Shown here: positions 15,772 to 39,732 of the stretch, piece by piece
Position numbering within the stretch: position 1 is the first letter of the stretch
Layout: every line of letters begins with the position of its first letter
NCBI GenBank assembly: GCA_963754235.1
Contig: CAVWFK010000036.1
Location: 1-64,000, forward strand
Length of the DNA: 64,000 bases
From: an uncultured Alphaproteobacteria bacterium
Lineage (GTDB): Bacteria > Pseudomonadota > Alphaproteobacteria > Acetobacterales > Acetobacteraceae
Direction: 5' to 3'
Translations under genes and position numbers: made by a program
Notes under the pieces: model-generated
Seen by the model: the letters and a program-made list of their open reading frames with translations, nothing else
What the model was told of the DNA's origin: nothing
Database searches by the model: none

Positions 15772-16085
15772 ACGAATTCGTCGATGCCGGTCCCGAACTT
15801 CAGGTCCTCATACAGACGCTCCGCGCCCCGGAGATGCCGCTCATTGCACGGCCAGCGCACAGCCCCCATTTGCAGGATCAACTCGTAGGTCAAGCCCGAA
15901 TAGTCGCACGGCCGGCCCTTCGACACCTTGCGCCATTCCTCGAACGCATCCCTGGGCTCCGTGAAGGGGATCAGCGGGGCTCCGTCGCGATCCTTGAAGT
16001 CCAACTTATTGGCCACCTCTACCTTCTCGATCGCATCGTACCGTGACCATTCGAGTCCGTTCCCCTCGCGTTCAGAAACCCAGAC
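15772..16085 (-). pseudogene. relic of a molybdopterin (Mo-bisPGD) oxidoreductase C-terminal domain (assimilatory nitrate reductase/formate dehydrogenase-like)
   Basis: Minus frame 'RDAFEEWRKVSKGRPCDYSGLTYELILQMGAVRWPCNERHLRGAERLYEDLKFGTGIDEFVYP' with GC3 about 85%. No start or stop; both flanks run into the antisense of neighbouring genes. Confidence 0.5.
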
Positions 16086-16089
16086 CCGC

Positions 16090-16095
16090 AAGGAG
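16090..16095 (+). promoter_or_regulatory. Shine-Dalgarno AAGGAG upstream of the DyP GTG start
   Basis: 'gcAAGGAGcgacgcGTG'. Confidence 0.5.
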
Positions 16096-16101
16096 CGACG
16101 C

Positions 16102-17148
16102 GTGCCATCCACAATTCCGCAACCGGTCGTCGCGCAGCTCACCCGCGCCGCTATTTTTCTCGTCGTGACGGTGAACTCCGGGCCGGGACATGATGTCACC
16201 GTGCGGACCTTGTGTGGTGATGTGGCTGCTCTTTTGCGCGCCGTGGGCTTCCGTGCCCTCGACGGTCGGCTGTCATGTGTCATGGGGCTTGGCTCCGACG
16301 CATGGGACCGGCTCTTCGGTGTGCCGAAGCCGAAAGAATTGCATCCGTTCCGTGAAATCCGCGGCCGGCATCACGCCGTCGCTACGCCGGGCGACATCCT
16401 CTTTCATATCCGCGCCACGCGTATGGATCTGTGCTTCGAACTGGCGACACAGATCATGTCGCGGCTGAGCGGCGCAGTCTCCACGGTGGACGAAGTGCAT
16501 GGCTTCAACTACTTCGATGATCGTGACCTGATCGGTTTCGTGGACGGGACGGAGAACCCCGTGGAGCAGGCGGCGATTGACGCCACCATCATCGGCGAGG
16601 AGGATGCGGCGTTTGCCGGTGGGAGTTACGCGATCGTACAAAAGTACGTTCATGACCTAAAGGGATGGAACGCGCTGCCCGTTGAGGAGCAAGAGAGAAT
16701 TATCGGCAGACTCAAGCTGTCCGACATCGAACTGGACGATAGCGTGAAGCCAACCTCCGCGCACAATGCCTTGACGACGATTATTGAAGACGGAAAACAG
16801 CTGGAGATCGTGCGCGACAACATGCCGTTCGGCGACGTGGGGAAGGGGGAGTTCGGTACCTATTTCATCGGTTATGCCCGCTCCCCGCGGCGGATCGAGC
16901 AGATGCTCGTGAACATGTTTGTCGGCCGGCCAGCCGGCAACTATGACCGGCTTTTGGATTTCAGCCGCGCCGTCACTGGCACGCTGTTTTTTGTGCCGTC
17001 CGCGACGTTTCTGGAGAATGTGGTGGCCGCCGGGGGCGCGGCTCCAGCGATGACCGGCCCGCCTGCGAACGGAGGTGAGGCGGAGGCCAAATCCGTCCCC
17101 GGATGGTTCACTCGGAATCGGCTCGCTGAAGAACAGAGGCAAGACATG
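16102..17148 (+). CDS. DyP-type peroxidase (DypB-like encapsulin cargo), C-terminal cargo-loading peptide out of frame
   Basis: GTG start. Strong similarity along the DyP domain ('..FVDGTENP..GGSYAIVQKYVHDL..DNMPFGDVG..GTYFIGYA..GTLFFVPS'). The targeting peptide 'DGSLGIGSLKNRGKT*' is encoded in the +1 frame at about 17102-17148, with TGA overlapping the encapsulin ATG. As written, the frame reads through into the encapsulin. Confidence 0.8.
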
Positions 17149-17952
17149 AACAATCTCCATCGGGAACTCGCCCCGATCTCCGATAAGGCATGGGAGCAGA
17201 TCGAAGAGGAGGCGTCGCGCACCCTCAAGCGCCACTTGGCGGCGCGGCGTGTCGTGGACGTGCTGGGCCCGAAGGGTCCCGAATTGTCGGCGGTCGGCAC
17301 CGGCCACCTCCGGCAGATCACGACGCCGGGCGATGGAATCCAAGCTGCGGCACGCGAGGCGAGGGCGCTCGTGGAATTGCGCGTTCCGTTCGATCTGACG
17401 CGCCAGGCGATTGACGATGTAGAGCGCGGCGCACTGGATTCAGACTGGTCGCCACTGAAGGTCGCGGCACGCAAAATTGCCTTCGCCGAAGACCACGCTG
17501 TCTTCGAAGGCTATGCCCCTGGGCAGATTCAGGGTTTCCGTCAAGGCACCAGCAACCCGACTTTGATGCTCCCGGCGGATGCGTGGAACTATCCGGATAC
17601 GGTCGCGCAGGCGGTAAGCCAATTACGCCTCGCCGGCGTCGATGGTCCCTATGTGCTCGTGCTGGGCGCCAATCCGTACACTGCAATCAGCGGAGCCAGT
17701 GCTGAGGGCTATCCGGTTCTGGAGCACATCCGGCGTCTCGTGGAGGGAGAGATCGTTTGGGCCCCAGCCATCGAGGGAGGTTTGGTACTGACCACCCGCG
17801 GCGGTGATTTTGAGTTGCACATCGGTCAGGACATCTCTATCGGTTACCTGAACCATTCTGAAGCCCTTGTTCAACTGTACCTGCAGGAAACCTTCGCGTT
17901 CCTGCTGCTGACAGCGGAAGCGTCCGTAATGCTCGCACCCCCGGAAAAATGA
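17146..17952 (+). CDS. family 1 encapsulin nanocompartment shell protein
   Basis: 'MNNLHRELAPISDKAWEQIEEEASRTLK..' 268 aa, HK97-fold encapsulin. Confidence 0.9.
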   Translation: MNNLHRELAPISDKAWEQIEEEASRTLKRHLAARRVVDVLGPKGPELSAVGTGHLRQITTPGDGIQAAAREARALVELRVPFDLTRQAIDDVERGALDSDWSPLKVAARKIAFAEDHAVFEGYAPGQIQGFRQGTSNPTLMLPADAWNYPDTVAQAVSQLRLAGVDGPYVLVLGANPYTAISGASAEGYPVLEHIRRLVEGEIVWAPAIEGGLVLTTRGGDFELHIGQDISIGYLNHSEALVQLYLQETFAFLLLTAEASVMLAPPEK

Positions 17953-20202: not shown

Positions 20203-21024
20203 TTAGGGATTCGATTCTTTGTTATACCGCTCGAACATCGCGGCGGCGATTTCCGGGCTGCTCGGCCACTGGCCGCGCCGTTGCCCGGCATGGGTCTGAT
20301 AAGTGTCCAGCCGGTCGGGGTCGGGCTGCACCACCTTGCCCGCTTGCAGGAACAGCAAACCCGCCTTGTCGGTCGGCATCCGCGCAACAAAGGCGTCGGC
20401 GTCGTCAAGAACCTGCCGCAAGCGCGTCATGGTCGCGGCAGGGTCAACGGGCGGGTCGCTCGCCACGCGCCGGAAATCCGCTTCCGTGTAGCGGCCAAGG
20501 CGGCGAACCTCGTTGATAAGCCCCTCCGGCGTAAAGCCGAGCGACTTGCCGACGGCGGCCCACACCACGGCCCCAAGCGGCAGAACGCGGTCATGGATCG
20601 TCAGCAAGTCCACCACGTCGCGCGGCTCCCGCCGTCCGGCCGCGGCCATCACCTTGTTGGTGGCGAGGTCAACCGGATGCAGCACATAGCCGAATGCCTC
20701 GTCCGGCATCGTCGGGAAAAACCGGTAGTCGGCGTCAACCGCCCATTCCAGCTTCGTCGTCTCGCCGCCTTTTCGGGCAACGACCGCATACATCGCCGGC
20801 TCGCGCCGCAGCCATTGCAGTTCGAAGCCGTCGGCCTGCAATGTGGCGCCATCTTCCTGCACCGCGCGCGCCACCCGTTCCTCGCGGTCGTGGAAAACGT
20901 CGATGTCGCCGGAATAACGCGGCGCGTCCCGGTTCAAAGGAGTGCTGCCCGCGACATAGCTTTCCGGGTCGCGGTGCGCGGCGAGCAAGCGCAGGATATC
21001 CGATTGAATTCTAGTGAGGGGCAC
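20203..21024 (-). CDS. AbiEii/AbiGii-type (DUF1814) nucleotidyltransferase toxin-family protein
   Basis: '..YVAGSTPLNRDAPRYSGDIDVFHD..' NTase signature. GTG start overlapping the upstream small ORF. Confidence 0.6.
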   Translation of the reverse strand: MPLTRIQSDILRLLAAHRDPESYVAGSTPLNRDAPRYSGDIDVFHDREERVARAVQEDGATLQADGFELQWLRREPAMYAVVARKGGETTKLEWAVDADYRFFPTMPDEAFGYVLHPVDLATNKVMAAAGRREPRDVVDLLTIHDRVLPLGAVVWAAVGKSLGFTPEGLINEVRRLGRYTEADFRRVASDPPVDPAATMTRLRQVLDDADAFVARMPTDKAGLLFLQAGKVVQPDPDRLDTYQTHAGQRRGQWPSSPEIAAAMFERYNKESNP

Positions 21025-21226
21025 GGCACGCGTTCTCGATCTGCTCCGCCAGCCGCCGCGCCCGCAGGTCGCCTTCTACCCGCAGGCTGCGGGTAATCGC
21101 GAGCGCATCTGCGGGTGTCGGCTCGGGCACCGGACGGCTGCTCCATAAGGCGGTTGCCCCGAAATCCGCAAACGCCTGCCGGTAGAGCGTCGCAAAATCC
21201 TCCGCCTGTCCTGGTTCCTTGCTCAT
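21011..21226 (-). CDS. small hypothetical protein (71 aa), possible cognate antitoxin
   Basis: ATG with SD 'taAGGAcgccATG' behind an AT-rich promoter-like patch (21227-21300). 14-nt overlap with the NTase gene. Confidence 0.4.
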   Translation of the reverse strand: MSKEPGQAEDFATLYRQAFADFGATALWSSRPVPEPTPADALAITRSLRVEGDLRARRLAEQIENACRAPH

Positions 21227-21375
21227 GGCGTCCTTAATACCAACTCGCTGATGGAGCTGAAATAAATGGCTGTTCTTGCTTATCATGCAAGGGACGTCGG
21301 CGCTTCCGCCGTCAGGCCGGGAACGGTCGCGAGTCTGTGCCGCGCCTCGCGGATGCGCTTCCGCCGCGGCTCCCC

Positions 21376-21449
21376 GAGCGTCCTTCCCCACCCCTCGGCA
21401 CCCAGCCACGCTACCCGCCCGGCCGCGATCGTGGCGGCCACGCGCGGCG
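21376..21449. repeat. about 75-bp direct repeat, copy 1 (duplicate of the phnM-like 3' end)
   Basis: About 92% identical to 22226-22300. Still encodes '..PRVAATIAAGRVAWLGAEGWGRTL' out of any gene context. Confidence 0.6.
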
Positions 21450-21505
21450 CGTTCCAGCGAACACTGTCCAGGGACGAAGGCCACGCGCCTTTCCTTCTGC
21501 CCATG

Positions 21506-21913
21506 TCAGCTCGCCGCACGAAACGGATTGACGATGCGCAGCCGGCCATCGAGCGCCATCCCGTGCTGCATGTCTTCCGACCACAACGTGTCACAATCGG
21601 CATGGAGAGCGGAGGCCGCGATCATGGCGTCATAGACTGAGAGATTGTAGCGCTCGGCCAGCGCCAAGCCAGTTTCGTGCATCTCGACCGTAAGGGGGTG
21701 AACGGTCAGCAAGCCGCGCAAGATGGACAGCAACGAATGGGTATCCTGCCATGACATTCGCATCTTACGGCGGGCGACCTTGGCAAGCTCGTTCAACACC
21801 TGAACGCTGATCGCGCCGCCGCGGCCGATGATCGCCTCTGCCTGGTCCGCCTTCACCGCATCCCCGGACGCAATATAGATGAGGACATTGGTGTCGAAGA
21901 AGCTAGCGGGCAT
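21506..21913 (-). CDS. vapC: type II toxin VapC (PIN-domain ribonuclease)
   Basis: 'MPASFFDTNVLIYIASGD..' PIN motifs. Confidence 0.85.
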   Translation of the reverse strand: MPASFFDTNVLIYIASGDAVKADQAEAIIGRGGAISVQVLNELAKVARRKMRMSWQDTHSLLSILRGLLTVHPLTVEMHETGLALAERYNLSVYDAMIAASALHADCDTLWSEDMQHGMALDGRLRIVNPFRAAS

Positions 21914-22133
21914 TCGCCTCGTCCCGGTCGAACTTGAAATCGGGAGGAAGGCGGCCGCGGAACGCGCGTAGCCGTCTCAGCAATTCCGCACGGCCAGGTT
22001 TGCGCGCAACGGCCAGTTCCCGCGCGTCGGCGACGTGGATTTCGATCTCATCACCTTCCTTGAGTTCGAGCGCCTCGACCACGGCCGCAGGGAGGCGGAC
22101 GGCGAGGCTGTTACCCCATTTGGCGACCAGCAT
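21903..22133 (-). CDS. vapB: type II antitoxin VapB (AbrB/MazE/SpoVT fold)
   Basis: 'MLVAKWGNSLAVRLPAAVVEALELKEGDEIEI..'. 11-nt overlap with vapC. Confidence 0.8.
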   Translation of the reverse strand: MLVAKWGNSLAVRLPAAVVEALELKEGDEIEIHVADARELAVARKPGRAELLRRLRAFRGRLPPDFKFDRDEANAR

Positions 22134-22191
22134 CTTGATCTCCCGGTATGGATATACATGCGAAGAAATGTGTATCCAAGGGCGCGGCAAA

Positions 22192-23380
22192 TCAACGGAA
22201 AGGTGCTGCATTGCAGGCGGACCCGGCGAGCGTCCTTCCCCACCCCTCGGCGCCCAGCCACGCCACCCGCCCGGCCGCGATCGTGGCGACGAGGCGCGGC
22301 GTGGCCCCCCGCATCGGCGACCAGCAGCAGATCGGCGCGCTTGCCGGCCGCGATCGTGCCGCGATCGGCGAGCCCGCAGGCTGCCGCCGGATTGGCCGAA
22401 ACGAGCCGCCACGCCGCCGCCAGATCGCGCACGCCACGCGACGCCAGCACGAACGCCGCGCGCAGCATCGCCGGATAGAAATAGTCGCTGGAGAGCACGG
22501 TGCAGAGTCCGGCCTCGGCGAGCCGCGCCGCCGACGCCCAGCCGAGATGCGAGCGCCCGCGCACCACGTTGGGGCTGCCCATCACCACCCAGTCGCCCGC
22601 TTCGCGCGCGGCCTCGGCGACCGCCTCCGCCATCGGGAACTCGCAGATGCGCGCGCCGCGGGCGCGGAAGGCGGCGCGCGTCGCGATGCTTTCGTCGTCG
22701 TGGCTCGCCATCGGCAGCCCGGCCGCTCGCGCCGCCGCCGCGATCGCGTCGAGCCCGGCCGGAACGGCACCGGCACCCCTCTCCACCCTGGCCGCGAGCG
22801 CGCGGAACGCCTCAAGCGTCATGCCGGCGCGCTCGCCGTATTTCGCGCCCAACACCGGGTCGGCGATCCGGCGCAGGATCGTCGGCGTGTGGTCGTTGAA
22901 CGCCAGCAGATGCACGCGGCCGCCGGCAATGTCGGCGCGCGCCATGTCGAGTGCCGCGACGTTGAACGCCTCCCAGCGCAGATGGATGCGCATGTCGCAC
23001 ACGGCGCGTGCGCGGTGCGCCTCCATCGCGTCGAGCAGCGCGCGCCACGTCTCGGCACCACGCAGCCCGGGCTCCCAGGAGAGCGTGACACCGTGATAGG
23101 CGGTGGTGATGCCGTTCGCCAGCAGCTGCGCTTCGGTATCGGCCAGCGCGACGGACGGCGGAAAATCCACGCCCGGCCGCGGCTGCAATTGCCGCTCGAA
23201 CGCATCGCCGTGGATATCGACGATGCCGGGCAGCACCAGCAGGCCGCGCGCATCGATCGCGCAACCGGCCTCGGCACACCCGATGGCCGCGATCCGACCC
23301 TCGGCCAGCAGCAGATCGGCCGTTTCCCAATTCCCCTCGCCGAGCAGCAGGCGGCCGCCGATGACACCGAGCGGCGTCAC
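22192..23380 (-). CDS. phnM: PhnM-like amidohydrolase (second phnM copy), apparent -1 frameshift near a C6 run at about 22305-22310
   Basis: '..PGIVDIHGDAFERQ..GKRADLLLVADAGG' in one frame. The expected C-terminus '..PRLVATIAAGRVAWLGAEGW..*' is in another frame (ORF 22192..22437). GTG start overlaps the phnF stop. Confidence 0.7.
22226..22300. repeat. about 75-bp direct repeat, copy 2 (native phnM-like 3' end)
   Basis: See copy 1. The two copies bracket vapBC. Confidence 0.6.
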
Positions 23381-24120
23381 GGCTCGCACACGATCTGCAC
23401 GCGCGGCGTCGGATAGCGGGCCAGGCAGAACTCGATCACGCGCCCGTCGCGATCGACGTTGACGTTCTCGCACACCAGCAGCGGCCGCGAGCGCGGCATC
23501 CTCAGCAGCCGTACCTCCTCCGCATTCGGCAGCCGCGCGGTCACGCGCGTCACCTGGCGCAGATAGTCGGCAACTCCGACCCGCCGCAGGGCGGCGGTGA
23601 TCGAAGGCGTCTCGTGCAGCGCCGCCAGCAGCCCGGGCAGGCGGGCGGCGGGGAAATGGTGCGAACCGAGGCTGACCGGCCGCGCATCGGCAAAGCCGAG
23701 GCGCTCCATCAACACGACCCGCCCGCGCGCGCGCAGGCCGAGGGCGGACGCGACCTCGCGCTCGGCCGGCACTTCGGCAAGCCGCAGCACCTGGCCCGAG
23801 GGTTCCTTGTTGTGGCGGCGGATCCATTCCGAGAAGCGCGTGCGGGGCGAGACGTTGTACTCGAGCACGTCTTCGGCCACGAAAGCGCCGCGGCCCTGCT
23901 CGACCCGCACCAGGCCGCCGCGCGACAGCTCTTCCATCGCCCGGCGCACGGTATGGCGATTGACGCCGAAGCGAGAAGCGAGCTGCGCCTCGGTGGGCAG
24001 CCGCGCGCCGGGCGCCGCGCCGCCCGTGATCTCGCGCCCCAGCGTCTCGGTAATGCGCCGCCACACGGCGACCCCGCGCGCCGTGCCGAGCGCCGGTTCG
24101 GGGATTGGAATGTCACTCAA
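23377..24120 (-). CDS. phnF: phosphonate metabolism transcriptional regulator PhnF (GntR/UTRA)
   Basis: '..EAQLASRFGVNRHTVRRAMEEL..' HTH plus UTRA domain. TTG start. Confidence 0.85.
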   Translation of the reverse strand: MSDIPIPEPALGTARGVAVWRRITETLGREITGGAAPGARLPTEAQLASRFGVNRHTVRRAMEELSRGGLVRVEQGRGAFVAEDVLEYNVSPRTRFSEWIRRHNKEPSGQVLRLAEVPAEREVASALGLRARGRVVLMERLGFADARPVSLGSHHFPAARLPGLLAALHETPSITAALRRVGVADYLRQVTRVTARLPNAEEVRLLRMPRSRPLLVCENVNVDRDGRVIEFCLARYPTPRVQIVCEP

Positions 24121-24154
24121 GGAACGTGGCCATTATTGGCATTGCAGCAATACC

Positions 24155-24283
24155 GTCATGGTCGGCGAAGGCCGACCATCCACGTCTTTCGTGACGCGGC
24201 AAAGTCGTGGATGCTCGGCCGGAGCCTGTCCTCGGGCGGGCCTTCGGCCCGACCCGGGGGCCGAGCATGACGGGCTGGTTAGA
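24155..24283. repeat. MITE/REP-like element copy B (long form) in the phnF/phnG divergent region
   Basis: Near-identical to copy A. Confidence 0.6.
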
Positions 24284-24342
24284 GCGATCGCTCCGGGCAT
24301 TGCGACTTGACGCTTAACGGAGAGGCGTCTAGCTGTCTAGAC

Positions 24343-24810
24343 ATGTCGGACGAGCCCGCAACGACAAACGAAATCGCCGCGCGGCAGCGCTGGATGGCGG
24401 TGCTGGCCCGCGCTTCCGCCGCCGAGATCGAGCGATTGCTGGCCGGCGCCCCTGCCCTCTCCGCGCACACCCGCCTGCGCGGGCCGGAAACCGGGCTCGT
24501 GATGCTGCGCGGCCGCGCCGGCGGCAGCGGGGCCGCGTTCAATCTGGGCGAGACGACCGTCACGCGATGCAGCGTGCGCAACGCCGAGGGCCGCGTCGGC
24601 CATGCCACGATCGCCGGCCGCGACCTGCGCGCCGCCGAGCTCGCGGCGGCGCTGGACGCGGCGCTGCAAGATGCCGCGCGGCGAGCGGTGCTGGAGGCGG
24701 CGGTGCTCGCACCCCTCGCGGCGGCGCAGGCAGCGCGGCGCGCGGCGCAGGCACGGCGCGCGGCGGCGACGCGGGTGCAGTTCTTCACGCTCGCGACGAT
24801 GCGCGCATGA
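24343..24810 (+). CDS. phnG: C-P lyase subunit PhnG
   Basis: 'MSDEPATTNEIAARQRWMAVLA..'. Confidence 0.85.
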   Translation: MSDEPATTNEIAARQRWMAVLARASAAEIERLLAGAPALSAHTRLRGPETGLVMLRGRAGGSGAAFNLGETTVTRCSVRNAEGRVGHATIAGRDLRAAELAAALDAALQDAARRAVLEAAVLAPLAAAQAARRAAQARRAAATRVQFFTLATMRA

Positions 24811-25382
24811 GCCTCGAACAGCCGGGCTTCGCCGATCCGGTCGCGGGCGCGCAATCCTGCTTCCGCGCGGTGCTCGACGCGATGGCGCGTCCGGGCCGCG
24901 TGCAGGCGGCGGGCGCCGGCCTTACCCCGCCCGCGCCGCTCGATCCGGCGACCGCCGCGGTGCTGCTGACGCTCGTGGACCCCGAGACGCCGCTCTCTCT
25001 GCCCGCCGCGGCGGCACCGGCGGCCGAGTGGATTGCTTTCCACTGCGGGGCGCCGGTCGTGCCGCGCATCGCCGAGGCGAGCTTCGTGCTCCGCTTCGAT
25101 CTGCCTGATTTCGCAACCTTGCAGGTAGGCACTCACGAGATGCCGGAACGCGGCGCCACGCTGATCCTGCAACTGCCGGCCCTCGGCAGCGGCGCCGCGC
25201 TCCACCTCGCCGGTCCCGGCCTCGCCGCCCCGGCACTCCTGCGCGCGACCGGCCTGCCCGGGGATTTCGCGGCGCGCTGGGCCGCCAACCACGCGCGGTT
25301 TCCGTGCGGCGTCGATCTCATCTTGTGCAGCGGCACCATGCTTGCCGCCCTGCCGCGCAGCGTCACGGTGGCGGCGGTCTGA
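24807..25382 (+). CDS. phnH: C-P lyase subunit PhnH
   Basis: 'MSLEQPGFADPVAGAQSCFRAVLDAMARPG..'. ATGA overlap. Confidence 0.85.
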   Translation: MSLEQPGFADPVAGAQSCFRAVLDAMARPGRVQAAGAGLTPPAPLDPATAAVLLTLVDPETPLSLPAAAAPAAEWIAFHCGAPVVPRIAEASFVLRFDLPDFATLQVGTHEMPERGATLILQLPALGSGAALHLAGPGLAAPALLRATGLPGDFAARWAANHARFPCGVDLILCSGTMLAALPRSVTVAAV

Positions 25383-26485
25383 TGGCCTATGTCGCGGTCA
25401 AGGGCGGCGAGCGCGCGATCGAGGCCGCCCACGCCTGGCTCGCCGAGGAGCGGCGCGGCGATCCCGAATTGCCGGATGTGTCCACCGGGCAGATCGCCGA
25501 GCAGCTTGGCCGCGCGGTTGATCGGGTGATGGCGGAGGGATCGCTGTACGATCCCGGCCTCGCGGCACTCGCGATCAAGCAGGCGCAGGGCGATCTGATC
25601 GAGGCCGCGTTCCTGCTGCGCGCCTACCGCACCACGCTGCCGCGCTTCGGCGCCTCCGAGCCGGTGCGCACCGAGGCGATGGCGGTGCGCCGGCGCATCT
25701 CGGCGGTGTTCAAGGACCTGCCCGGCGGCCAGGTGCTCGGACCGACGACCGACTACACGCACCGGCTGCTCGATTTCGCGCTCGCGGCCGGCTCGACGCC
25801 GCCTGCCCCGCCTCAAGCTGTCGCGCCTCAAGCAATCGCCGAGGATGCACCGGCGCCGCGCGTCACCGACATCCTGGGCGGCGAAGGGCTGATCGAAGCG
25901 GACCCGGCAGGCGACGACATGCCCCCCGGCGACCTCACCCGCGACCCGCTGGCCTTCCCCGCGTCGCGCGATCTGCGCTTGCAGGCGCTCGCGCGCGGCG
26001 ACGAGGGATTCCTGCTCGGCCTCGGCTATTCGACTCAGCGCGGCTATGGCAACGCGCACCCGTTCGCGGGCGAGATCCGGATGGGCGAGGTAGCGGTCGA
26101 GATCGTGCCGCCCGAGCTCGGATTTCCGGTGGAGATCGGCACCGTTACGATCACGGAATGCCAGGTGGTGAACCAGTTTCGCGGCTCGAAAACTGTGCCG
26201 CCGCAATTCACCCGCGGCTACGGCCTCGCCTTCGGCCATGCCGACCGGCGCGCGATGGCGATGGCGCTGGTGGATCGCGCGCTGCGCGCCGCGGAGCTGG
26301 GCGAGGACGTGACGGCACCCGCGCAGAGGCAGGAATTCGTGCTGTCGCACTGCGATAACGTAGAAGCGACCGGCTTCGTCGAGCATCTCAAGCTGCCGCA
26401 CTACGTCGATTTCCAGAGCGAGCTGGAGACGATCCGGCGGCTGCGCCGTGACGCCGAGACCGCGATGCCGAAGGCCGCCGAATGA
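25382..26485 (+). CDS. phnI: C-P lyase subunit PhnI
   Basis: 'MAYVAVKGGERAIEAAH..'. Confidence 0.9.
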   Translation: MAYVAVKGGERAIEAAHAWLAEERRGDPELPDVSTGQIAEQLGRAVDRVMAEGSLYDPGLAALAIKQAQGDLIEAAFLLRAYRTTLPRFGASEPVRTEAMAVRRRISAVFKDLPGGQVLGPTTDYTHRLLDFALAAGSTPPAPPQAVAPQAIAEDAPAPRVTDILGGEGLIEADPAGDDMPPGDLTRDPLAFPASRDLRLQALARGDEGFLLGLGYSTQRGYGNAHPFAGEIRMGEVAVEIVPPELGFPVEIGTVTITECQVVNQFRGSKTVPPQFTRGYGLAFGHADRRAMAMALVDRALRAAELGEDVTAPAQRQEFVLSHCDNVEATGFVEHLKLPHYVDFQSELETIRRLRRDAETAMPKAAE

Positions 26486-27321
26486 TGCAGGGCTACAACT
26501 TCGCCTATCTCGACGAGCAGACGAAACGCATGGTGCGCCGCGCGATCCTCAAGGCGGTCGCGGTGCCGGGGCATCAGGTGCCGTTCGGCTCACGCGAGAT
26601 GCCGCTGCCCTATGGCTGGGGAACCGGGGGGATCCAGGTGACGGCCGCGATCCTGGGTGCCTCGGACGTGCTCAAGGTGATCGACCAGGGTGCCGACGAC
26701 ACCACCAACGCGGTCTCGATCCGCCGCTTCTTCGCCCGCACCGCGGGCATCGCCACCACCACGCACACGGCCGATGCGAGCATCATCCAGACCCGCCACC
26801 GCATCCCGGAGGCTAGGCTGCGCGAGGATCAGATCATCGTCTATCAGGTGCCGCAGCCCGAGCCGCTGTACCGGCTCGAGCCGCGCCGCGCCGAAGCCAC
26901 GCGGATGCACGCGCTCGCCGATTACGGCCTGATGCACGTCAAGCTGTACGAGGATGTGTCCCGACTGGGCCAGGTCTCGATCAGCTACGATTATCCGGTG
27001 ATGGTCGCGGGACGCTATCTGGCGTCGCCCTCGCCGATCCCGGCCTTCGACAATCCGAAGATGCACAGGATGCCGGCGGTGCAATTGTTCGGCGCCGGGC
27101 GGGAGAAGCGCATCTATGCGATCCCGCCCTATACCGAGGTCCGCTCGCTCGATTTCGAGGACCATCCGTTCCGGCCCACCCGCGCGCCGCACGCCTGCGC
27201 GTTGTGCGGAGCGGCCGACAGCTATCTCGACGAGGTGGTGACGGATGATCGCGGCGGACGGATGTTCGTCTGCTCCGACACCGATCATTGCGAGCAGCGG
27301 CGCGGGGCGGCGGCGGCGTGA
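26482..27321 (+). CDS. phnJ: C-P lyase catalytic subunit PhnJ
   Basis: 'MMQGYNFAYLDEQTKRM..' with a Cys cluster 'CALCGAADSYLDEV..CSDTDHC'. Confidence 0.9.
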   Translation: MMQGYNFAYLDEQTKRMVRRAILKAVAVPGHQVPFGSREMPLPYGWGTGGIQVTAAILGASDVLKVIDQGADDTTNAVSIRRFFARTAGIATTTHTADASIIQTRHRIPEARLREDQIIVYQVPQPEPLYRLEPRRAEATRMHALADYGLMHVKLYEDVSRLGQVSISYDYPVMVAGRYLASPSPIPAFDNPKMHRMPAVQLFGAGREKRIYAIPPYTEVRSLDFEDHPFRPTRAPHACALCGAADSYLDEVVTDDRGGRMFVCSDTDHCEQRRGAAAA

Positions 27322-28091
27322 CCGCGCCCCTGCTCGAAGCCGAGCACCTCTCGCTCGCATTCGGCGCGGTGCAGGCGCTCGCTTGCGTCGATGCCGCGCT
27401 GTGGCCGGGCGAGGTGCTGGCGATCGTGGGCGAATCCGGCTCCGGCAAGACCACGCTGCTCAACGTGCTGTCCGGCCACCTCGCACCCGATCAGGGCCGG
27501 GTGTGGTATCGCGATCCCGCCGGGCTGCGGCACGACGTCCATGCGATGCCGGCCCCTGCGCTGCGCACGCTGCACCGCTCCGACTGGGGGTTCGTGCAGC
27601 AGGACCCGAAGCTGAGTTTGCGCATGGGCGTCTCCGCCGGCGGTAATGTCGGCGAGCGGCTGATGGCGCAGGGTGCCCGCCACTACGGCCGGATTCGCGA
27701 AGCGGCACTCGACTGGCTGCGGCAGGTGGAGATCGACGCCGATCGCATCGACGACCTGCCGCGCACCTTCTCGGGTGGAATGCTGCAACGCTTGCAGATC
27801 GCGCGCACCCTGGTCACGCATCCGCGGCTGGTGTTCATGGACGAACCGACCGGCGGCCTGGACGTGTCGGTGCAGGCGCGGCTGCTCGACCTGATCCGCA
27901 CCTTGGTGGCGCGATTGCAGGTCGCGGTGATGCTGGTGACGCACGATGTCGCCGTCGCCCGCCTGCTCGCCGGGCGGATCATGGTGATGCAGCGCGGCCG
28001 AGTGGTCGAAACCGGGCTCACCGACCAGGTGCTCGACGACCCGCAGCACGAATACACGCAACTGCTGGTAAGCTCGGTGCTGGCGGCATGA
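27318..28091 (+). CDS. phnK: phosphonate C-P lyase ATP-binding protein PhnK
   Basis: Walker A 'GESGSGKTT'. GTGA overlap. Confidence 0.9.
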   Translation: MTAPLLEAEHLSLAFGAVQALACVDAALWPGEVLAIVGESGSGKTTLLNVLSGHLAPDQGRVWYRDPAGLRHDVHAMPAPALRTLHRSDWGFVQQDPKLSLRMGVSAGGNVGERLMAQGARHYGRIREAALDWLRQVEIDADRIDDLPRTFSGGMLQRLQIARTLVTHPRLVFMDEPTGGLDVSVQARLLDLIRTLVARLQVAVMLVTHDVAVARLLAGRIMVMQRGRVVETGLTDQVLDDPQHEYTQLLVSSVLAA

Positions 28092-28117
28092 CCACGCACC
28101 CCTCATGGCCGGCGAAT

Positions 28118-28278
28118 GCCGGATCGTCGTCATGCTCGGCGAAGGCCGCACACTCGTCATGCTCGGCGGAGGCCGAGCATCCACGACTTTGCGGGCCCAC
28201 GAAAGGCGTGGATGGTCGGCCGGAGCCTGTCCTCGGGCGGGCCTTCGGCCCGACCCGGGGGCCGACCATGACGGTGAG
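28118..28278. repeat. MITE/REP-like element copy C (expanded form) between phnK and phnL
   Basis: 'GTCATGCTCGGCGAAGGCCG..' with an internal duplication. Sits in the only sizeable intergenic gap of the phnG-M operon. Confidence 0.6.
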
Positions 28279-28287
28279 AATTGCGGC

Positions 28288-28989
28288 ATGACCACGCTGA
28301 TGCTGCGCGCCGAGGCGCTGGAGAAAACCTTCACCCTGCACCTGCGCGGCGGCCTCCGCCTGCCGGTGCTGCGCGACCTCGCACTCGACGTCCGTGCCGG
28401 CGAATGCGTCGCCCTGGCCGGGCCGTCGGGCGCGGGCAAGACCACGCTGCTGCGCAGCCTCTATGGCAATTACCGCGCCGGCGGCGGCCGCATCCTGGTG
28501 CGCCATCGCGGCGAGATGGTCGATATCGCGCGCGCCGATCCGCGCACCGTGCTCGCGGTCCGCGCCGAGACGCTCGGCCATGTCAGCCAGTTCCTGCGCG
28601 TGGTGCCGCGCGTGGCCGCCCTCGACATCGTGGCCGAGGCGGCGTTGGCGCGCGGTGCCGCACCGGAAGCGGCGCGGGAGCAGGCACGGGCGCTGCTCGC
28701 GCGCCTCGGCATCCCGCCGCGTCTGCACGCCCTGCCGCCCGCGACCTTCTCCGGCGGCGAGCAGCAGCGCATCAACCTCGCCCGCGCCTTCATCGCCCGC
28801 CATCCGGTGCTGCTGATCGACGAGCCGACCGCCTCGCTCGACGACGCCCGCCGCGACGTCGCGGTGGCGATGATGCGCGAGGCCAAGGCGGCAGGTGCCG
28901 CGATCGTGCTGATCGCGCACGACGTTGCGGTGCGCGACGCGATCGCCGATCGTCTGCTGACGCTGACGCCGTTGCAGGATGCCGCATGA
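28288..28989 (+). CDS. phnL: phosphonate C-P lyase ATP-binding protein PhnL
   Basis: 'MTTLMLRAEAL..GPSGAGKTTLL'. Confidence 0.9.
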   Translation: MTTLMLRAEALEKTFTLHLRGGLRLPVLRDLALDVRAGECVALAGPSGAGKTTLLRSLYGNYRAGGGRILVRHRGEMVDIARADPRTVLAVRAETLGHVSQFLRVVPRVAALDIVAEAALARGAAPEAAREQARALLARLGIPPRLHALPPATFSGGEQQRINLARAFIARHPVLLIDEPTASLDDARRDVAVAMMREAKAAGAAIVLIAHDVAVRDAIADRLLTLTPLQDAA

Positions 28990-30125
28990 CCGTCGAGACC
29001 GTGCTGACCAACGCAATCCTGGTGCTGCCGCAGGAGACCATGCCCGGCACGCTGAAACTGTGCCGCGGCCGTATCGCCGCCGTCGATGCCGGGCGCAGCG
29101 CCGTCCCCGCCGCCATCGACCTCGAAGGCGACATGCTGATCCCCGGCGCGGTCGATCTGCATTCCGACAACCTCGAACGCCAGGTGCATCCGCGCAGCAG
29201 CGCGCGCTGGCCCTCGCGCGAGGCGATGATCGCGCACGACGCGCAATGCGCGGCCGCCGGCGTGACCACCGTGCTGGACGCGCTCTGCGTCGGCGACCTC
29301 GGCTACGAGAAGGATCGCAACCGCACCTTCCAGGAAGGTGTCGCCGATCTCGACGCGCTCGAGGGCACCGGCCTGCTGCGCATCGAGCACTTTTTGCACC
29401 TGCGCTGCGAGATCCCCGCCCCCGACACGCTCGACCTCCTTGAGCCCGCGTCCGGCCATGCGCGCGTGCGGATGGCCAGCCTGATGGACCACAGCCCGGG
29501 CGTGGGGCAGAACGCCGACCTCGACCGCTATCGCGCGCTGCGCCGGCGCGATGGCGAGGACGATTCCAGGATCGAGCGCCGCATTGTCGAGATGCTCGAT
29601 CGCCGCGCCGTGCTGCGCGATCCCAATCGCCGCGCGCTCTTGGATCGGCTGCGGCGCGTGGGCGTGGCACTTGCCAGCCACGACGACCGCACCGAGGCGG
29701 AGGTGGAGGAGAATTATCGCGACGGCATCGCGATCAGCGAGTTCCCGGTGACGATCGCGGCCGCGCGCGCGGCGCGGGCACGCGGCATGGCGGTGATCGC
29801 GGGCGCGCCCAATCTGGTGCGCGGCGGCTCGCATTCCGGCAACGTCGCGGTCGTCGATCTGCTGCGCGCGGGGCTGGTTGATGCGCTCGCCTCGGACTAC
29901 GTGCCGGGCAGCCTGATCTCGGCCGCCTTCCGCGCCGCCGCCCTCGGCCTGCTGCCGCTGCCGCAGGCGGTGGCCCTGGTCAGCCTGCGTCCCGCGCGCC
30001 TCGCCGGCCTCGCCGACCGTGGTGCGATCGCACCCGGTCTCGCCGCCGATCTGGTGCGGCTCCGGGTCCATGACGGCATCCCGGTCGCGCGAGAGACCTG
30101 GCGGGCGGGCGCGCGCGTCGCGTGA
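28986..30125 (+). CDS. phnM: alpha-D-ribose 1-methylphosphonate 5-triphosphate diphosphatase PhnM
   Basis: '..PGAVDLHSDNLERQ..ASHDD..' amidohydrolase. ATGA overlap with phnL. Confidence 0.9.
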   Translation: MTVETVLTNAILVLPQETMPGTLKLCRGRIAAVDAGRSAVPAAIDLEGDMLIPGAVDLHSDNLERQVHPRSSARWPSREAMIAHDAQCAAAGVTTVLDALCVGDLGYEKDRNRTFQEGVADLDALEGTGLLRIEHFLHLRCEIPAPDTLDLLEPASGHARVRMASLMDHSPGVGQNADLDRYRALRRRDGEDDSRIERRIVEMLDRRAVLRDPNRRALLDRLRRVGVALASHDDRTEAEVEENYRDGIAISEFPVTIAAARAARARGMAVIAGAPNLVRGGSHSGNVAVVDLLRAGLVDALASDYVPGSLISAAFRAAALGLLPLPQAVALVSLRPARLAGLADRGAIAPGLAADLVRLRVHDGIPVARETWRAGARVA

Positions 30126-30399
30126 TAAAACCCGTGGGCAACTCCGTTGCAATATGCATCGTCATGTATGGACGGCCCCCGTCTGGCAAGGAGGTTTTGG
30201 CGGCGCTGGCGATTGGTCTGGAGCGGTCATGTATTCGGCCTGTTGCTGCGGTCGAATGCTGACCGCTGGCCCCGATGGGTTACGCGGGCCGGGTTCCAAG
30301 CATCGCGGCGCGCTGTGGGGCGCGATGACGAGACGGAGTGTCCCGGTCCAGGTCCTGACCATTTTGCCGTCGCTGCCTTCTGCTCCTTGCTGGGTCACT

Positions 30400-31760
30400 G
30401 GCTGCTCTTCAGGCGAGCGGCCAGAAAGGGGAAGGTTTCTTGGTTTGGCTGCTGCGGGGCGTTCCTTCGTCCCGGCCTTCGTCCCGGCCTGTGTGGTTGC
30501 GGGCGCCGCGCGCAGCGGCGGTCAAGGGGGGCCGGAGGCCCCCGCCGCAGGCGGCGCGCAGCGCCCTTGACGGCCGCGAGCACGGCACCACGCTGGAGTG
30601 GGCCGCAGCTGCGGCCATCATTGCGCCACCTGTGCCGCGGGGCGGCGATAGGTCTCACCGGAGATCAGCATCGCCCAGGCGATGCGGGCGGTTTTCGCCG
30701 CCTGCGCCAAGACCACGACCTTCACCGGCCGGCGAGCCAGGATGCCGCGCTGCCAGGCGGTGGCGCGATCGGTGCGGCTGCGGGCATAGCGCATGATCGT
30801 GCTGGCGCCGAGGGCCAACAGCTTGCGCAGCCGGATGTCGCCCTGGCGGCTGATGCCGCTCGCGCGCCGCTTGCCCGCACTCGAATGCTCAAGCGGTGTC
30901 AGGCCGCACCAGGCGGCGAAGTCGCGGGCGCTGCGGAACTGCCGACCGTCGCCGATTGCGGTGACGATGGCGTGGGCGGTGATCGGGCCAACGCCGGGGA
31001 TGGTGGCCAGCCGGCGCATCACCGGGTGCTCGCGGGCGGCCGCGACGATGCGTTCCTCCAGCGCCGCAATGTCGCGCTGCAACCTCTCGATGGTCTTCAC
31101 CATGATGCGCAGCGGCACCCGAAGCGGCTCCGGGATCGCAACCTCCGCCGTGTCGTCGACCCGCCGCGCCAGCTCGGCAAAGCCCCGCCGGCCCTGGGCG
31201 GCGATGATGCCGAACTCGGCCAGCAGGCTGCGCGCGCAGTTCGTCAGCTGGGTCTGCTGCTTCAGCAGCAGATCGCGCGCGCGTTCCAGGCCACGCGCGG
31301 CCTGCTGCTCGATGCTCTTGATCGGCACGAAGCGCATGTTCGGCCGGCACACCGCCGCGCAGATGGCTTCGGCATCACGCGCGTCGTTCTTGTTGCGCCT
31401 GACGAAGGGCTTCACATAGGCGGCCGGGATCAGCCGCACCTCATGGCCGAGCGCCCGCAGCTGGCGCGCCCAGTAATGCGCGCTGCCGCAGGCCTCGATC
31501 CCCACCAGGGCGGGCGACTGCTTGGTGAAGAACGGCTCGACCTGGGTCCGGCGCAGCTTCTTCTGCTCGATCACCTTGCCGGTGCTGTCGGCCACATGCA
31601 CCTGGAACACAGACTTGGCGATATCCAGGCCGATTATGGTAGCGTTCATGACGGACGGTCTCCGTTGCTGGTTGGTCAAACCCCAGCTTGGCACATAGAT
31701 GCCGTCAGGGGGCCGTCCACCCAGCATCGCGAGGCGCGCTGCGCCGTGGCGATCCAGGCG
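30400..31760 (-). mobile_element. IS110-family insertion sequence (boundaries approximate)
   Basis: Contains the IS110 transposase gene. Inserted in the phnM / DUF1045-gene spacer. No obvious terminal inverted repeats, as is typical of IS110. Confidence 0.6.
30618..31649 (-). CDS. IS110 family transposase
   Basis: 'MNATIIGLDIAKSVFQVHV..' DEDD N-domain, C-terminal '..CGLTPLEHSSAGKRR..'. Confidence 0.85.
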   Translation of the reverse strand: MNATIIGLDIAKSVFQVHVADSTGKVIEQKKLRRTQVEPFFTKQSPALVGIEACGSAHYWARQLRALGHEVRLIPAAYVKPFVRRNKNDARDAEAICAAVCRPNMRFVPIKSIEQQAARGLERARDLLLKQQTQLTNCARSLLAEFGIIAAQGRRGFAELARRVDDTAEVAIPEPLRVPLRIMVKTIERLQRDIAALEERIVAAAREHPVMRRLATIPGVGPITAHAIVTAIGDGRQFRSARDFAAWCGLTPLEHSSAGKRRASGISRQGDIRLRKLLALGASTIMRYARSRTDRATAWQRGILARRPVKVVVLAQAAKTARIAWAMLISGETYRRPAAQVAQ

Positions 31761-31813
31761 GGCCGCTCCGTGCCTCCCGCCTGGATCGCCACGCCGCCCA
31801 GCGGCGGCTCGCG

Positions 31814-32512
31814 ATGACGGCTGCGCCAGGTCCCGTTCTGTCTAGGGTCGCGCTCTACTGGGCGCCGGCGGCCGACGATCCGCTGTGGCGTGCGGGCAAT
31901 ACATGGCTCGGCCGCGACCCCGAGACCGCCGATCGCCTGCTTCCTCCCGACCTGCCCGGCATCGCGGGCCTGACCGAAGCGCCGCGGCGCTATGGCTTCC
32001 ACGCGACGCTGAAGCCGCCGATGCGCCTCGCCGGATCGTGGCAGGCGTTCCGCCGCGACGCGGCGATGCTCGCCGCGCGCACCGCCGCCTTCCCGATGCC
32101 GCCGCTCGCGGTCGCCGACCTCGCCGGCTTCCTGGCGTTGCGCGAGGCGGCACCCTGCCCGGCGCTGCACGCCTTCGCCGATGCCTGCGTCGCAGCACTC
32201 GACGCGCACCGCGCGCCGCTTGACCCTGCCGAGCAGGCAGACCGGCGCGCGGCCGGCCTGTCGGCGGCGGAGGAGGCAAATCTGCTGCGCTGGGGCTATC
32301 CTTACGTATTCGATACGTTCCGCTTCCACGCGACACTCACCCGCCGGCTGAGTGCGGAAGAGCAGGCGTGGGTCGCCCCCGCCGCCCGCGCGCATTTCGC
32401 CGCCGCGCTCGCTGCCGATCGCCGGGTCACCGAACTCTGCCTGTTCACCGAGGCGGCCCCCGGTGCGCCGTTCATGCTGGCAGAGCGGCTGCCGCTAGCC
32501 GGTTCAGGATAG
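31814..32512 (+). CDS. DUF1045 (2H-phosphoesterase-like) putative phosphonate metabolism protein
   Basis: '..YWAPAADDPLWRAGNTWLGRD..FHATLKPP..FHATLTRR' two H-x-T-x motifs. Confidence 0.75.
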   Translation: MTAAPGPVLSRVALYWAPAADDPLWRAGNTWLGRDPETADRLLPPDLPGIAGLTEAPRRYGFHATLKPPMRLAGSWQAFRRDAAMLAARTAAFPMPPLAVADLAGFLALREAAPCPALHAFADACVAALDAHRAPLDPAEQADRRAAGLSAAEEANLLRWGYPYVFDTFRFHATLTRRLSAEEQAWVAPAARAHFAAALAADRRVTELCLFTEAAPGAPFMLAERLPLAGSG

Positions 32513-33020
32513 CGACCAGCCTGCGCCCGCCCTGCTCGATCGTGCCGTCGTTCATGATCGTGTCGCGCGGCAGGCCCTCGGGCAGCTTGACGGTGCGCGC
32601 CAGACGCGCGGCGACCGCAACCGCCTCGTCGCGCCCGCGCGCGGCCATGCGGCGTGCCAGCACGTCCGGCGGCGCGGTGACCTCCACCACGTGCAGCGGA
32701 TAGCGCGAGCCGGCCTCGGCCAGCACGGTGCGCGACACGCTGGCGACGACGATCTTCCCCTCCGCCAGCCGCAGCCCGATCTCGGCGGGCACGCCGTACA
32801 TCAGCCCGTGCGCACGCCAGGAGAGGGCGAAGGCGCCGGCATTCTGCCGCGTCACGAACGTCTTCTCGTCGATCGTCTCGTGGTCCTCGCCCTCCAGCGG
32901 CGGGCGGGTCACGGCGCGGCGGACGAAATAGAACCGCTCCTGCGCGCCAAGCGCCGTCCGGGCGGCATTGATCAGCGTGTCCTTGCCCGAGCCGGAAGGC
33001 CCGACCACCGCCACCAGCAT
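32472..33020 (-). CDS. phnN: ribose 1,5-bisphosphokinase PhnN
   Basis: 'MLVAVVGPSGSGKDTLI..'. Confidence 0.85.
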   Translation of the reverse strand: MLVAVVGPSGSGKDTLINAARTALGAQERFYFVRRAVTRPPLEGEDHETIDEKTFVTRQNAGAFALSWRAHGLMYGVPAEIGLRLAEGKIVVASVSRTVLAEAGSRYPLHVVEVTAPPDVLARRMAARGRDEAVAVAARLARTVKLPEGLPRDTIMNDGTIEQGGRRLVAILNRLAAAALPA

Positions 33021-33089
33021 CCCGCCTCCTCTTATTGACGCGGCGAAGCTTGCGCGTAGCCTGTTGCTCGCGCAACGGGAGCACACGCG

Positions 33090-34868: not shown

Positions 34869-34904
34869 TGGGCCTCGTGCCTCGGATGGCAGCAATGCGG
34901 CGTT

Positions 34905-35214
34905 TTGGCATGGGAAAAGATCGTGAAGCCCTCAGCCGCCCTTGACCTCAAGCGAGTCGCCGTACGCGAAGCTGCGAGCCGGTTTCGTGTCGCGAATCCG
35001 CGCGTATTCGGCTCGGGTACTGCACGGAACCGACACGGACGGTGGCGATCTCGATCTGTTGGTGGATGCGTTGCCGGGAGCGACCCTGTTCGATCTTGGT
35101 GGCCTGCAAGTCGAGCTCGAAGAATTGCTGGGCGTTTCCGTCGATCTGGTGACGCCGGGGGATTTGCCGGTCAAATTCCGCGATCAAGTTCTTGCGGAGG
35201 CGAGGCCGGTGTGA
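34905..35214 (+). pseudogene. MNT (minimal nucleotidyltransferase, MntA-like) antitoxin, frameshifted
   Basis: '..RVFGSGTAR' (ORF 34905..) and 'GTDTDGGDLDLLVD..LGVSVDLV..' (ORF 34942..) lie in adjacent frames. Together they would give the NTase signature hGS..D.D. Confidence 0.5.
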
Positions 35215-35217
35215 AGC

Positions 35218-35592
35218 ATGAACCGCCTGCCCGACTACCTCGCCCACATCCAGCAAGCGGCGTCGGACGCGTGCAGCTTTGTCGAGGGACTGCATAAGGA
35301 AGAGTTCTTCGCCGACAAGCGCACGCAAAAGGCTGTCGTCATGAGCCTGGTCATTGTGGGCGAGGCCGCGACGAAGGTAATGGCTCGTTATCCCGAATTC
35401 GTAGCGAGGCACTCCGAAGTACCATGGCGTAGCATGCGCGGGATGCGCAACCGCGTTGCGCACGGCTACTTCGACATCGACCTCGAGGTGGTTTGGGACA
35501 CGGTGCAGACCGCTGCGCCCGAGCTGCTCGATCGTCTGGCTGCCATTCGTCATGACGCCGAGTCCCATATTGAAAGTAGGGGCTACGAGTGA
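35218..35592 (+). CDS. hepT: HepT-like (DUF86/HEPN) ribonuclease toxin
   Basis: '..MRGMRNRVAHGYFDIDLEVVW..' Rx4HxY motif. Confidence 0.8.
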   Translation: MNRLPDYLAHIQQAASDACSFVEGLHKEEFFADKRTQKAVVMSLVIVGEAATKVMARYPEFVARHSEVPWRSMRGMRNRVAHGYFDIDLEVVWDTVQTAAPELLDRLAAIRHDAESHIESRGYE

Positions 35593-35644
35593 GCACGCGC
35601 CCCACCCTGCCGTTGTGGCTGCACCCGAACCGGCTGGTCGCGCG

Positions 35645-37420: not shown

Positions 37421-37485
37421 GTCTGTCTCCCCGATCGCGCGCGCAGCTTACGCAGCGATGGGCGAGACCGAAAGGGCGGGTGGCC

Positions 37486-38358: not shown

Positions 38359-38557
38359 GGTGACTGTCCCCGCAATCGGCGCCCGGCGGACCCCGCCGAA
38401 CGGCCTGATGTCCCCCTGCGCCGGATGCTCTCTCGCGCCGACCGGAAGAACGTACAACTTGACGACCGGCGGTAGCCAGCCGGCCGTTTGCCCGGCGGCG
38501 GCTTGCGCGCACGCACCGGCTGGGCTTCCCTCGGCGTGCGGCGAAGCGGAAGGGCGG

Positions 38558-39295: not shown

Positions 39296-39339
39296 CATCA
39301 ACGGCCCTTGATCCCTTGGCAGTGCCGCGGTTGCCCCCA

Positions 39340-39428
39340 TCGTCATGCTCGGAAGGCCGAGCATCCACGACTTTGCGGCCGCGCGAAAGACGTGGATGGT
39401 CGGCCTTCGCCGACCATGACGGGTTGGT
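39340..39428. repeat. MITE/REP-like element copy D (short form, inverted orientation)
   Basis: 'GTCATGCTCGGAAGGCCGAGCATCCACGACTTTGCGGCCGCGCGAAAGACGTGGATGGTCGGCCTTCGCCGACCATGACGG'. Confidence 0.6.
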
Positions 39429-39709: not shown

Positions 39710-39732
39710 TATCCCGTTTCCGAAATTCCCCG

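Follow-up and report, generated by a model that had tools for sequence, protein, structure and literature searches.

A vapBC toxin-antitoxin cassette flanked by a 75-bp duplication of a phnM gene end in an uncultured member of the Acetobacteraceae

Here we describe a vapBC toxin-antitoxin (TA) cassette that is bracketed by two copies of the 3' end of phnM, a gene of the carbon-phosphorus (C-P) lyase cluster (phn), in a 64,000-nucleotide stretch of DNA from an uncultured alphaproteobacterium of the family Acetobacteraceae (GenBank assembly GCA_963754235.1, contig CAVWFK010000036.1, positions 1 to 64,000; hereafter the window, to which coordinates refer unless a relative's locus is named). The arrangement suggests that vapBC was inserted into the last 25 codons of phnM1, one of two phnM-like genes in the window, in an ancestor, that 75 bp of the target were duplicated, and that relatives later lost the core of the phn cluster, a history to which we give about an even chance. 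It is a single, old case, and the claim of vapBC insertion is suggestive rather than established.

Results

A repeat search found one pair of 75-nt direct repeats in the window, at 21375-21449 (the distal copy) and 22227-22301 (the proximal copy), which are identical at 70 of 75 positions (93.3%) and lie 852 bp apart from start to start. With a blastn-short E-value of 4e-27 in a window of 69.6% GC, the pair is not a product of chance. The same program placed only these two copies in the 64 kb; beyond them, the longest match for either one is 16 nt. The ends of the repeats are sharp, in that the 100 nt on either side align locally within the range of shuffled sequence. Between the copies lie 777 bp whose only genes are vapB and vapC, and the DNA separating the repeats from the conserved cassette amounts to 56 nt on the distal side and 23 nt on the proximal side. 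A first-pass annotation had reported direct repeats of about 75 bp around vapB-vapC, both encoding the C-terminus of PhnM and the distal one standing outside any gene context; its repeat coordinates prove correct to within one base, and both of its other statements are borne out below.

Read on the minus strand, the two copies translate as (T/A)PR(LV/VA)ATIAAGRVAWLGAEGWGRTL, the distal copy reading PRVAATIAAGRVAWLGAEGWGRTL. A scan with the phnM body, limited to one genome per species, returned 80 loci, all from Acetobacteraceae or Rhodopila-like bacteria and at most 77% identical in amino acid sequence. In all 80, PhnM ends in the motif ..PR(V/L)VATIAxGRIAxLxAEGxxRL, followed by 0-17 variable residues where the stop lies within the locus; in L017 and L061 the PhnM frame runs to the end of the locus without a stop. 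The repeat thus represents the last ~25 conserved codons of phnM. None of the 80 loci contains a second copy of its own phnM 3' end, and none has this vapBC, or the AbiEii-like pair and MBL gene that neighbour it in the window, near phnM.

The proximal copy (minus strand) is contiguous with the phnM1 body (22302-23380, minus strand), which encodes an amidohydrolase of the alpha-D-ribose 1-methylphosphonate 5-triphosphate diphosphatase family (Pfam Amidohydro_1 and Amidohydro_3). The product is 69-77% identical to proteins named PhnM by their sources, the best match among 5.8 billion proteins standing at 77%, and the gene adjoins phnF and phnG-L, as expected of a PhnM, an amidohydrolase-fold protein encoded in a C-P lyase cluster. 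The second PhnM-like gene of the phn region, phnM2 (28986-30122, plus strand), is only 35% identical to phnM1. Compared with the nearest outgroups, which have CTG GTC (coding L-V), the proximal copy carries synonymous changes only; the distal copy has undergone the non-synonymous changes L to V and V to A, plus GTG to GTA (G to A). The V to A change alters a second codon position at which 74 orthologues all agree, and the other four of the five differences between the copies lie at sites that vary among orthologues; a test for a preference for such sites gave P = 0.16. We read the proximal copy as the working end of phnM1, presumably its functional C-terminal 25 codons.

The distal copy (minus strand, 80% GC and native-like) is joined to no phnM body. 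It continues in frame into 30 codons, GEPRRKRIREARHRLATVPGLTAEAPTSLA, and then a stop (21283-21374, minus strand), a putative displaced original tail of phnM1. This tail is 73.9% GC, its frame stays open up to the AT-rich spacer, and its GC content at third codon positions (GC3) is 0.80, against 0.72 and 0.69 in the other frames. The distal copy and the next 92 nt, at 74-80% GC, form a native-like fragment between two foreign-looking modules, and together they would be the displaced original end of phnM1, as we infer from the sequence. On the other side of the cassette, phnM1 now ends in a new tail of 11 codons, AGSACNAAPFR, most of which is supplied by a 23-nt junction segment (22204-22226, minus strand) that is present only in the window and absent from the relatives L081 and L170 described below; the present stop codon (22192-22194) lies inside the upstream region of vapBC. 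At 63% GC overall, the new tail (22192-22226) closes with 11 codons, counting the stop, whose GC3 of 0.45 is unlike that of native coding DNA. Neither tail has a match among 120 homologues.

The first-pass annotation overlooked that the proximal copy, as deposited, is out of frame with the phnM body. A C6/G6 homopolymer at 22305-22310, four bases past the proximal repeat, has one base too many and shifts the phnM1 body relative to its C-terminus, and the deposited assembly calls a 467-residue read-through phnM product (P0001) that runs into vapB in another frame. With one base deleted from the C6 run, the gene encodes a 395-residue PhnM whose residues 1-387 align to residues 1-386 of the nearest homologue (P0002) with one gap, and the proximal copy then aligns with the C-terminus of that homologue. 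This frameshift is likely an assembly error, because the window has another frameshift near a C-terminus and the sister assemblies contain many split genes; a real, early pseudogene is the less likely alternative. The second case concerns a DyP-type peroxidase and an encapsulin shell gene, which form one 674-residue open reading frame (ORF; 15928-17952, plus strand) with a shift near 17040-17090. The sequence does contain the canonical DyP cargo-loading peptide PDGSLGIGSLKNRGKT with its stop codon, but in a different frame from the DyP body, probably owing to a homopolymer error. Split genes in the long-read relatives from ENA include GGT, MBL, SDR and others (L170 3921-5701, several in L171 and L172), which indicates frequent indel errors in the data set of the window's relatives. 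A blastx frameshift screen with stop-to-stop ORFs of related loci was too noisy to use, as 70% GC gives long conserved ORFs in all six frames, and frames were assessed instead by direct reading of phnG-J and of the DyP targeting peptide.

The cassette itself has the layout of a type II TA module of the VapBC family. The predicted antitoxin gene vapB (21903-22133, minus strand; 76 residues, AbrB/MazE-type, Pfam PF04014, E = 4.3e-14) precedes the predicted toxin gene vapC (21506-21913, minus strand; 135 residues, PIN domain, Pfam PF01850, E = 1.9e-14) and overlaps it by 11 nt. As a family, PIN-domain toxins are RNases and are not known to cut DNA. The region upstream of vapB (22134-22203, minus strand) is conserved in L081 and L170, is 49% GC over 22137-22191, and contains an imperfect palindrome, GGATACACAT-N8-ATGTATATCC, at 22150-22177 that is likely the vapBC operator. 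A 56-nt spacer (21450-21505, minus strand; 62.5% GC) separates the vapC stop from the distal copy; it is weakly shared with L081 and absent from L170.

Composition and distribution both mark the cassette as an immigrant. Native genes have 72-74% GC and a GC3 of 0.88; the values are 65% and 0.74 for vapB and 60.5% and 0.78 for vapC. VapC relatives at 85-90% identity come from distant lineages of Alphaproteobacteria (Sphingomicrobium, Bradyrhizobium, Reyranella and Stellaceae), whereas the best match to PhnM stands at 77%, and window positions 21480-22183 share 84-86% DNA identity with cassettes in otherwise unrelated contigs. Over 83 loci, the homology stops at the vapC stop, and its other end lies either at the start codon of vapB or ~35-50 nt ahead of that gene. 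With its low GC and GC3 and its relatives in unrelated contexts, the vapBC cassette is foreign, horizontally mobile DNA. In a plasmid collection the family occurs only at 64-74% identity, which has no bearing on the junctions.

The flanks of 64 other contexts of the cassette were compared, with flank pairs from different loci as the control for chance (99th percentile score 13). High scores occurred only in L146 and L147, which are one locus sampled twice. This locus was rejected as a second case of flanking repeats, its 89-nt repeat being not a gene end but a palindromic element like the repetitive extragenic palindromic (REP) sequences (TGTAGGGCGGA...TCCGCCCTACA; L146 430-518 and 1566-1654; L147 2483-2557 and 3619-3693). 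Its vapBC is also more distant (VapC 74% identical), and downstream of it lies a lower-GC region with a 373-residue ORF of unknown function. Duplication of a gene end is not a regular feature of this cassette family.

Signatures of known mobile elements were sought around the insert. No tRNA or tmRNA gene was found in 15-32 kb of the window, there is no Rfam match and no terminator-like site, and the ends of the insert show no terminal inverted repeats beyond chance. The 75-mer forms no hairpin, folds no better than its shuffles (z = 0.3-0.4) and contains no GTT or AAC triplet; it thus lacks both the palindromic fold and the RYYYAAC / GTTRRRY core sites of an integron attC. Nor does the locus match a transposon or insertion sequence (IS), which would have terminal inverted repeats and a duplication of 2-14 bp, the duplication here being 75 bp. 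Among the subset of ORFs scanned between ~1.4 and 45.6 kb, an IS110-family transposase was the only recombinase or transposase, and Pfam scans of the surrounding genes otherwise gave housekeeping functions; with no tyrosine or serine recombinase domain in the scanned genes and no tRNA or tmRNA, the locus does not qualify as a site-specific integrative element bounded by attL and attR. The transposase gene (DEDD_Tnp_IS110 and Transposase_20; 30618-31841, minus strand) lies between phnM2 and a DUF1045 gene, ~8.7 kb from the cassette, and is absent from L081/L169 and L170, where phnM2 and the DUF1045 gene are adjacent. As no other mechanism was detected, a long target duplication is the simplest reading of the repeats.

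Two close relatives carry the same vapBC. L081, extended as L169, is collinear with window positions 28883-40751 at 88-95% identity, and L170, identified from the 90% clusters to which the Ohr and SDR proteins of the window belong, is nearer still to the window at ~92%. The cassette stands directly upstream of phnM2 in L081; coincidence was rejected as an explanation for the amidohydrolase gene beside vapBC there, since it is the orthologue of the window's phnM2 (89.7% amino acid identity). L170 likewise has vapBC upstream of phnM2, and its MBL-Ohr-SDR genes abut vapC, with ~22 nt between the stop codons. The cassette of L170 is preceded by ~130 nt of unrelated sequence, which we take to resemble a repeat of the REP or miniature inverted-repeat transposable element (MITE) type. 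Block structure in blastn alignments reveals that 22204-28882, comprising the junction segment, the proximal copy, phnM1, phnF, phnG-K and most of phnL, is missing from both relatives. L081 retains the last ~33 codons (~100 nt) of phnL fused to the vapB upstream region, and it is thus a deletion derivative; beyond vapC it has ~56 nt of weak similarity and then 10 kb of unrelated core genes, without the 75-mer. L170 lacks the AbiEii pair, phnM1-phnL and the 75-mer, the last of which was found in none of L169-L172. L171 and L172 share the same left flank, followed by other genes, and have no vapBC.

Breakpoints in these relatives fall within tens of bases of vapBC and its upstream region on both sides (L169 9640-9730 and 10409-10470; L170 8133-8261 and 8963-8984). 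It looks as if the cassette was protected while neighbouring genes were deleted or rearranged up to its borders in L081 and L170. The relatives without phnM1-phnL still carry phnM2, the DUF1045 gene, a phnN-like kinase gene and GGT. The first-pass annotation had proposed an alignment to relatives free of vapBC. The 80 phnM loci do offer single phnM 3' ends without vapBC, but their downstream flanks cannot be aligned with the window, and the close relatives lack phnM1; the left-flank genes and the L081-flank genes had no matches in the 80 loci, which served as outgroups.

The same relatives bear on the age of the insertion. Third-position divergence of host genes is 0.173 between the window and L081 and 0.152 between the window and L170, and that of vapB and vapC is 0.15-0.22. 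The cassette has thus diverged in step with the host genes, and the insertion is old, not recent. A neutral relic dating from those splits is expected to differ from the functional copy by ~9-12%; the observed 5/75 (6.7%) is compatible with this (P = 0.12-0.36), and the insertion and duplication can be as old as the splits of the lineage from L081 and L170. The objection that the copies are too similar for an old duplication was rejected on the ground that third-position divergence is itself only 15-17%.

Beyond the displaced phnM fragment lies a second TA-like cassette (20203-21235, minus strand), made up of an antitoxin-like ORF (21011-21226) and an AbiEii-like nucleotidyltransferase gene (20203-21024; a weak Pfam AbiEii match). 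It is placed on the far side of the distal fragment, with its stop codon 1 nt from the convergent MBL stop. The pair has 66-67% GC and a GC3 of 0.76-0.79, and its relatives, at 75-91% identity, come from Acidobacteriota, Nitrospirae and Acetobacteraceae. At the DNA level, five unrelated contexts share homology with the window only over 20201/20220-21226/21233, and the module was found neither in L170, L171 and L172 nor in the plasmid collection. The window also contains a dispersed family of ~70-100-nt repeats in both orientations (940-1006, 24152-24220, 28154-28221, 39324-39452, 53023-53108 and 62607-62713; L170 993-1099), two copies of which lie within the phn cluster, one being translated as the annotated N-terminus of the phnL ORF.

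Discussion

The history that we favour would run as follows. In an ancestor of this lineage, a vapBC addiction cassette of ~0.75 kb, complete with an upstream control region, would have entered phnM1 within its final 25 conserved codons, and the 75 bp at the insertion point would have been left on both sides, that is, as an insertion with long target duplication. The proximal copy would have stayed on the phnM1 body, so that the conserved C-terminus was kept and a new 11-codon tail and stop were taken from the inserted DNA, and the distal copy with its 30-codon tail would have been displaced, becoming non-coding and slowly decaying. Relatives would afterwards have lost neighbouring phn genes through deletions that halted at the cassette, as expected if loss of the antitoxin is lethal. 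Insertion and duplication would most plausibly have been one event. Candidate origins of the duplication are a staggered break whose repair captured the cassette and a single crossover that brought in a circular molecule. On this history, phnM1 at an empty site would be uninterrupted, end ...GRTLGEPRRKRIREARHRL... and adjoin the MBL gene.

The first-pass annotation had likewise proposed a long target duplication left by integration of the TA module. The vapBC pair, the phnM 3'-end repeats, the mobility of the cassette and the failure to detect a rival mechanism all sustain that proposal; no empty-site allele was found, and the insertion is not a recent one. It is the best interpretation available, but unproven, as there is no empty site among the sampled relatives.

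Several observations weigh against this history. The empty-site allele was not found among the relatives sampled, and the close relatives, having no phnM1, cannot show the state before insertion. A flanking duplication of a gene end occurs in none of the 64 other cassette contexts, the distal tail resembles no known PhnM tail, and three of the five differences between the copies crowd into 5 nt at one edge, an unusual pattern if decay is random. The history requires independent deletions in L081 and L170 whose cassette-side ends fall within ~6 nt of each other (~22203 and ~22197), and in L081 a further rearrangement with a breakpoint within ~25 nt of the boundary of the distal copy; these near-coincident breakpoints may be due to selection to keep the cassette. 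Finally, we know of no mechanism for a 75-bp duplication.

The near-coincidence of the deletion ends is explained more simply if the junction is ancestral. On this alternative, vapBC replaced most of the phn core in the common ancestor and left a stump on either side, one holding the final 75 nt of phnM1 and its tail, the other the final ~100 nt of phnL; the window lineage later regained phnM1-phnL from a related donor, the two repeat copies being orthologous ends from two lineages. The regained DNA would have been joined by homologous recombination in phnL/phnM2 at one end and illegitimately next to the region upstream of vapB at the other, and any recombinant without vapBC would have died. 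A phnL stump of just this kind exists in L081, where it is fused to the region upstream of vapB, and both L081 and L170 have vapBC and lack the block, with vapB-side junctions ~6 nt apart. Re-acquisition would also fit the absence of any protein more than 77% identical to it among the 5.8 billion, despite several sampled relatives at 88-92% DNA identity, and the placement of four of the five copy differences at sites that vary among functional orthologues. However, the new illegitimate joint would have to coincide with the old junction, and decay of the relic added to divergence of the donor should exceed 6.7% (a rough binomial estimate for at most 5/75 at 16% divergence is 0.02-0.03). Moreover, the 23 nt that follow the proximal copy are unlike native coding DNA in GC3 and GC, and L081 has no distal copy, that stump being seen in the window only. 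We therefore consider re-acquisition unlikely. A native phnM1 end, ...GRTLAGSACNAA..., followed by vapBC without a distal copy would fit re-acquisition and contradict insertion with duplication.

Flanking direct repeats and an intact target gene are also what many integrative elements leave behind, and the incoming DNA may have carried its own phnM 3' end, with integration by a Campbell-type crossover or by an integrase acting in trans at an att site in the 75-mer, the cassette perhaps being the remnant of a larger island. Copies that are 93% rather than fully identical fit an element-borne end from another host, and the cassette family is clearly mobile. Against this, neither an integrase or recombinase among the scanned genes of the window nor a tRNA or tmRNA (15-32 kb) was found, the 75-mer shows no hairpin or inverted-repeat architecture, no other copy of the cassette has a phnM fragment or a shared flank, and the 75-mer lies at neither end of the cassette in the two close relatives, all of which makes homologous or site-specific integration improbable. 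Least credible is an artefact in which a long-read metagenome assembler joined strain variants and so created the duplication: indel errors do occur in the source and sister assemblies, as the two C-terminal frameshifts of the window and the many split genes of L170 and L172 show, but five positions distinguish the copies, unique sequence adjoins each of them on both sides and their outer joints have no k-mer in common, the 852-bp unit is shorter than a typical long read, and the compositional blocks are coherent.

Insertion with long target duplication, which we continue to prefer, is a rare layout with a precedent in restriction-modification (RM) units, for which it was reportedly described in 2000 by Nobusato and colleagues (Gene 259:99). 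The vapBC locus can be set beside a later survey of insertion with long target duplication among RM gene units (Furuta et al. 2010, NAR 38:2428; PMC2853133). There the repeats are longer than 30 bp (46-423 bp) and unique, mobility genes are lacking, GC is atypical, and the site is often the start or stop of a neighbouring gene; repeat identities are, for example, 44/46 or 384/412 (93%), the cases are proven by an empty-site genome, and DNA double-strand breakage by the cargo has been suggested as the driver (PMC2853133). The vapBC locus is likewise a small addiction-type unit of atypical GC without a mobility gene, flanked by target-derived direct repeats far longer than the duplications that transposases make; the repeats exceed 30 bp, the insert is below 20 kb, a repeat at the gene end lets the target gene survive, and repeat identity is similar (93%). 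It differs in having no empty-site genome, and cargo-driven DNA breakage would not apply to a PIN-domain RNase. With a PIN toxin and an AbrB/MazE antitoxin as cargo in place of restriction and modification genes, the vapBC locus has the same layout yet falls outside the original definition of the class, and the literature searched contained no paper that uses the term for a type II TA locus.

Two other kinds of locus invite comparison. Integrative elements that target gene 3' ends also bracket foreign DNA with direct repeats of the gene end (attL and attR) and leave the target frame complete; in contrast, the window locus has a two-gene cargo and no integrase or tRNA/tmRNA that we could find, and the relatives' cassette stands without the repeat. 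Chromosomal vapBC loci, reviewed as modules that move horizontally and resist deletion (PMC2654758), share with it the gene order, overlap and domains and a distribution at odds with the host tree. Under the stabilisation, or anti-deletion, model, a TA module persists as neighbouring DNA is lost (PMC2654758), and the persistence of this cassette while its neighbours were lost is as that model predicts; accounts of such loci do not usually include a host gene end duplicated over 75 bp on their flanks.

The relatives of the window give a clear natural example of a TA pair that persists while deletions and rearrangements of the adjoining genes reach its borders from either side. A vapBC with a long target duplication would extend the RM layout to a cargo that does not cut DNA and so narrow the possible mechanisms. 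As a speculation that we ourselves think has a small chance of being correct, little TA cassettes, like RM units, may need no recombinase to enter chromosomes and may instead follow a route in which tens to hundreds of target bases become duplicated. If so, the PIN toxin being an RNase, the route would be independent of DNA cleavage by the cargo, the flanking repeats would permit excision or amplification, and addiction modules would gain a life cycle of their own.

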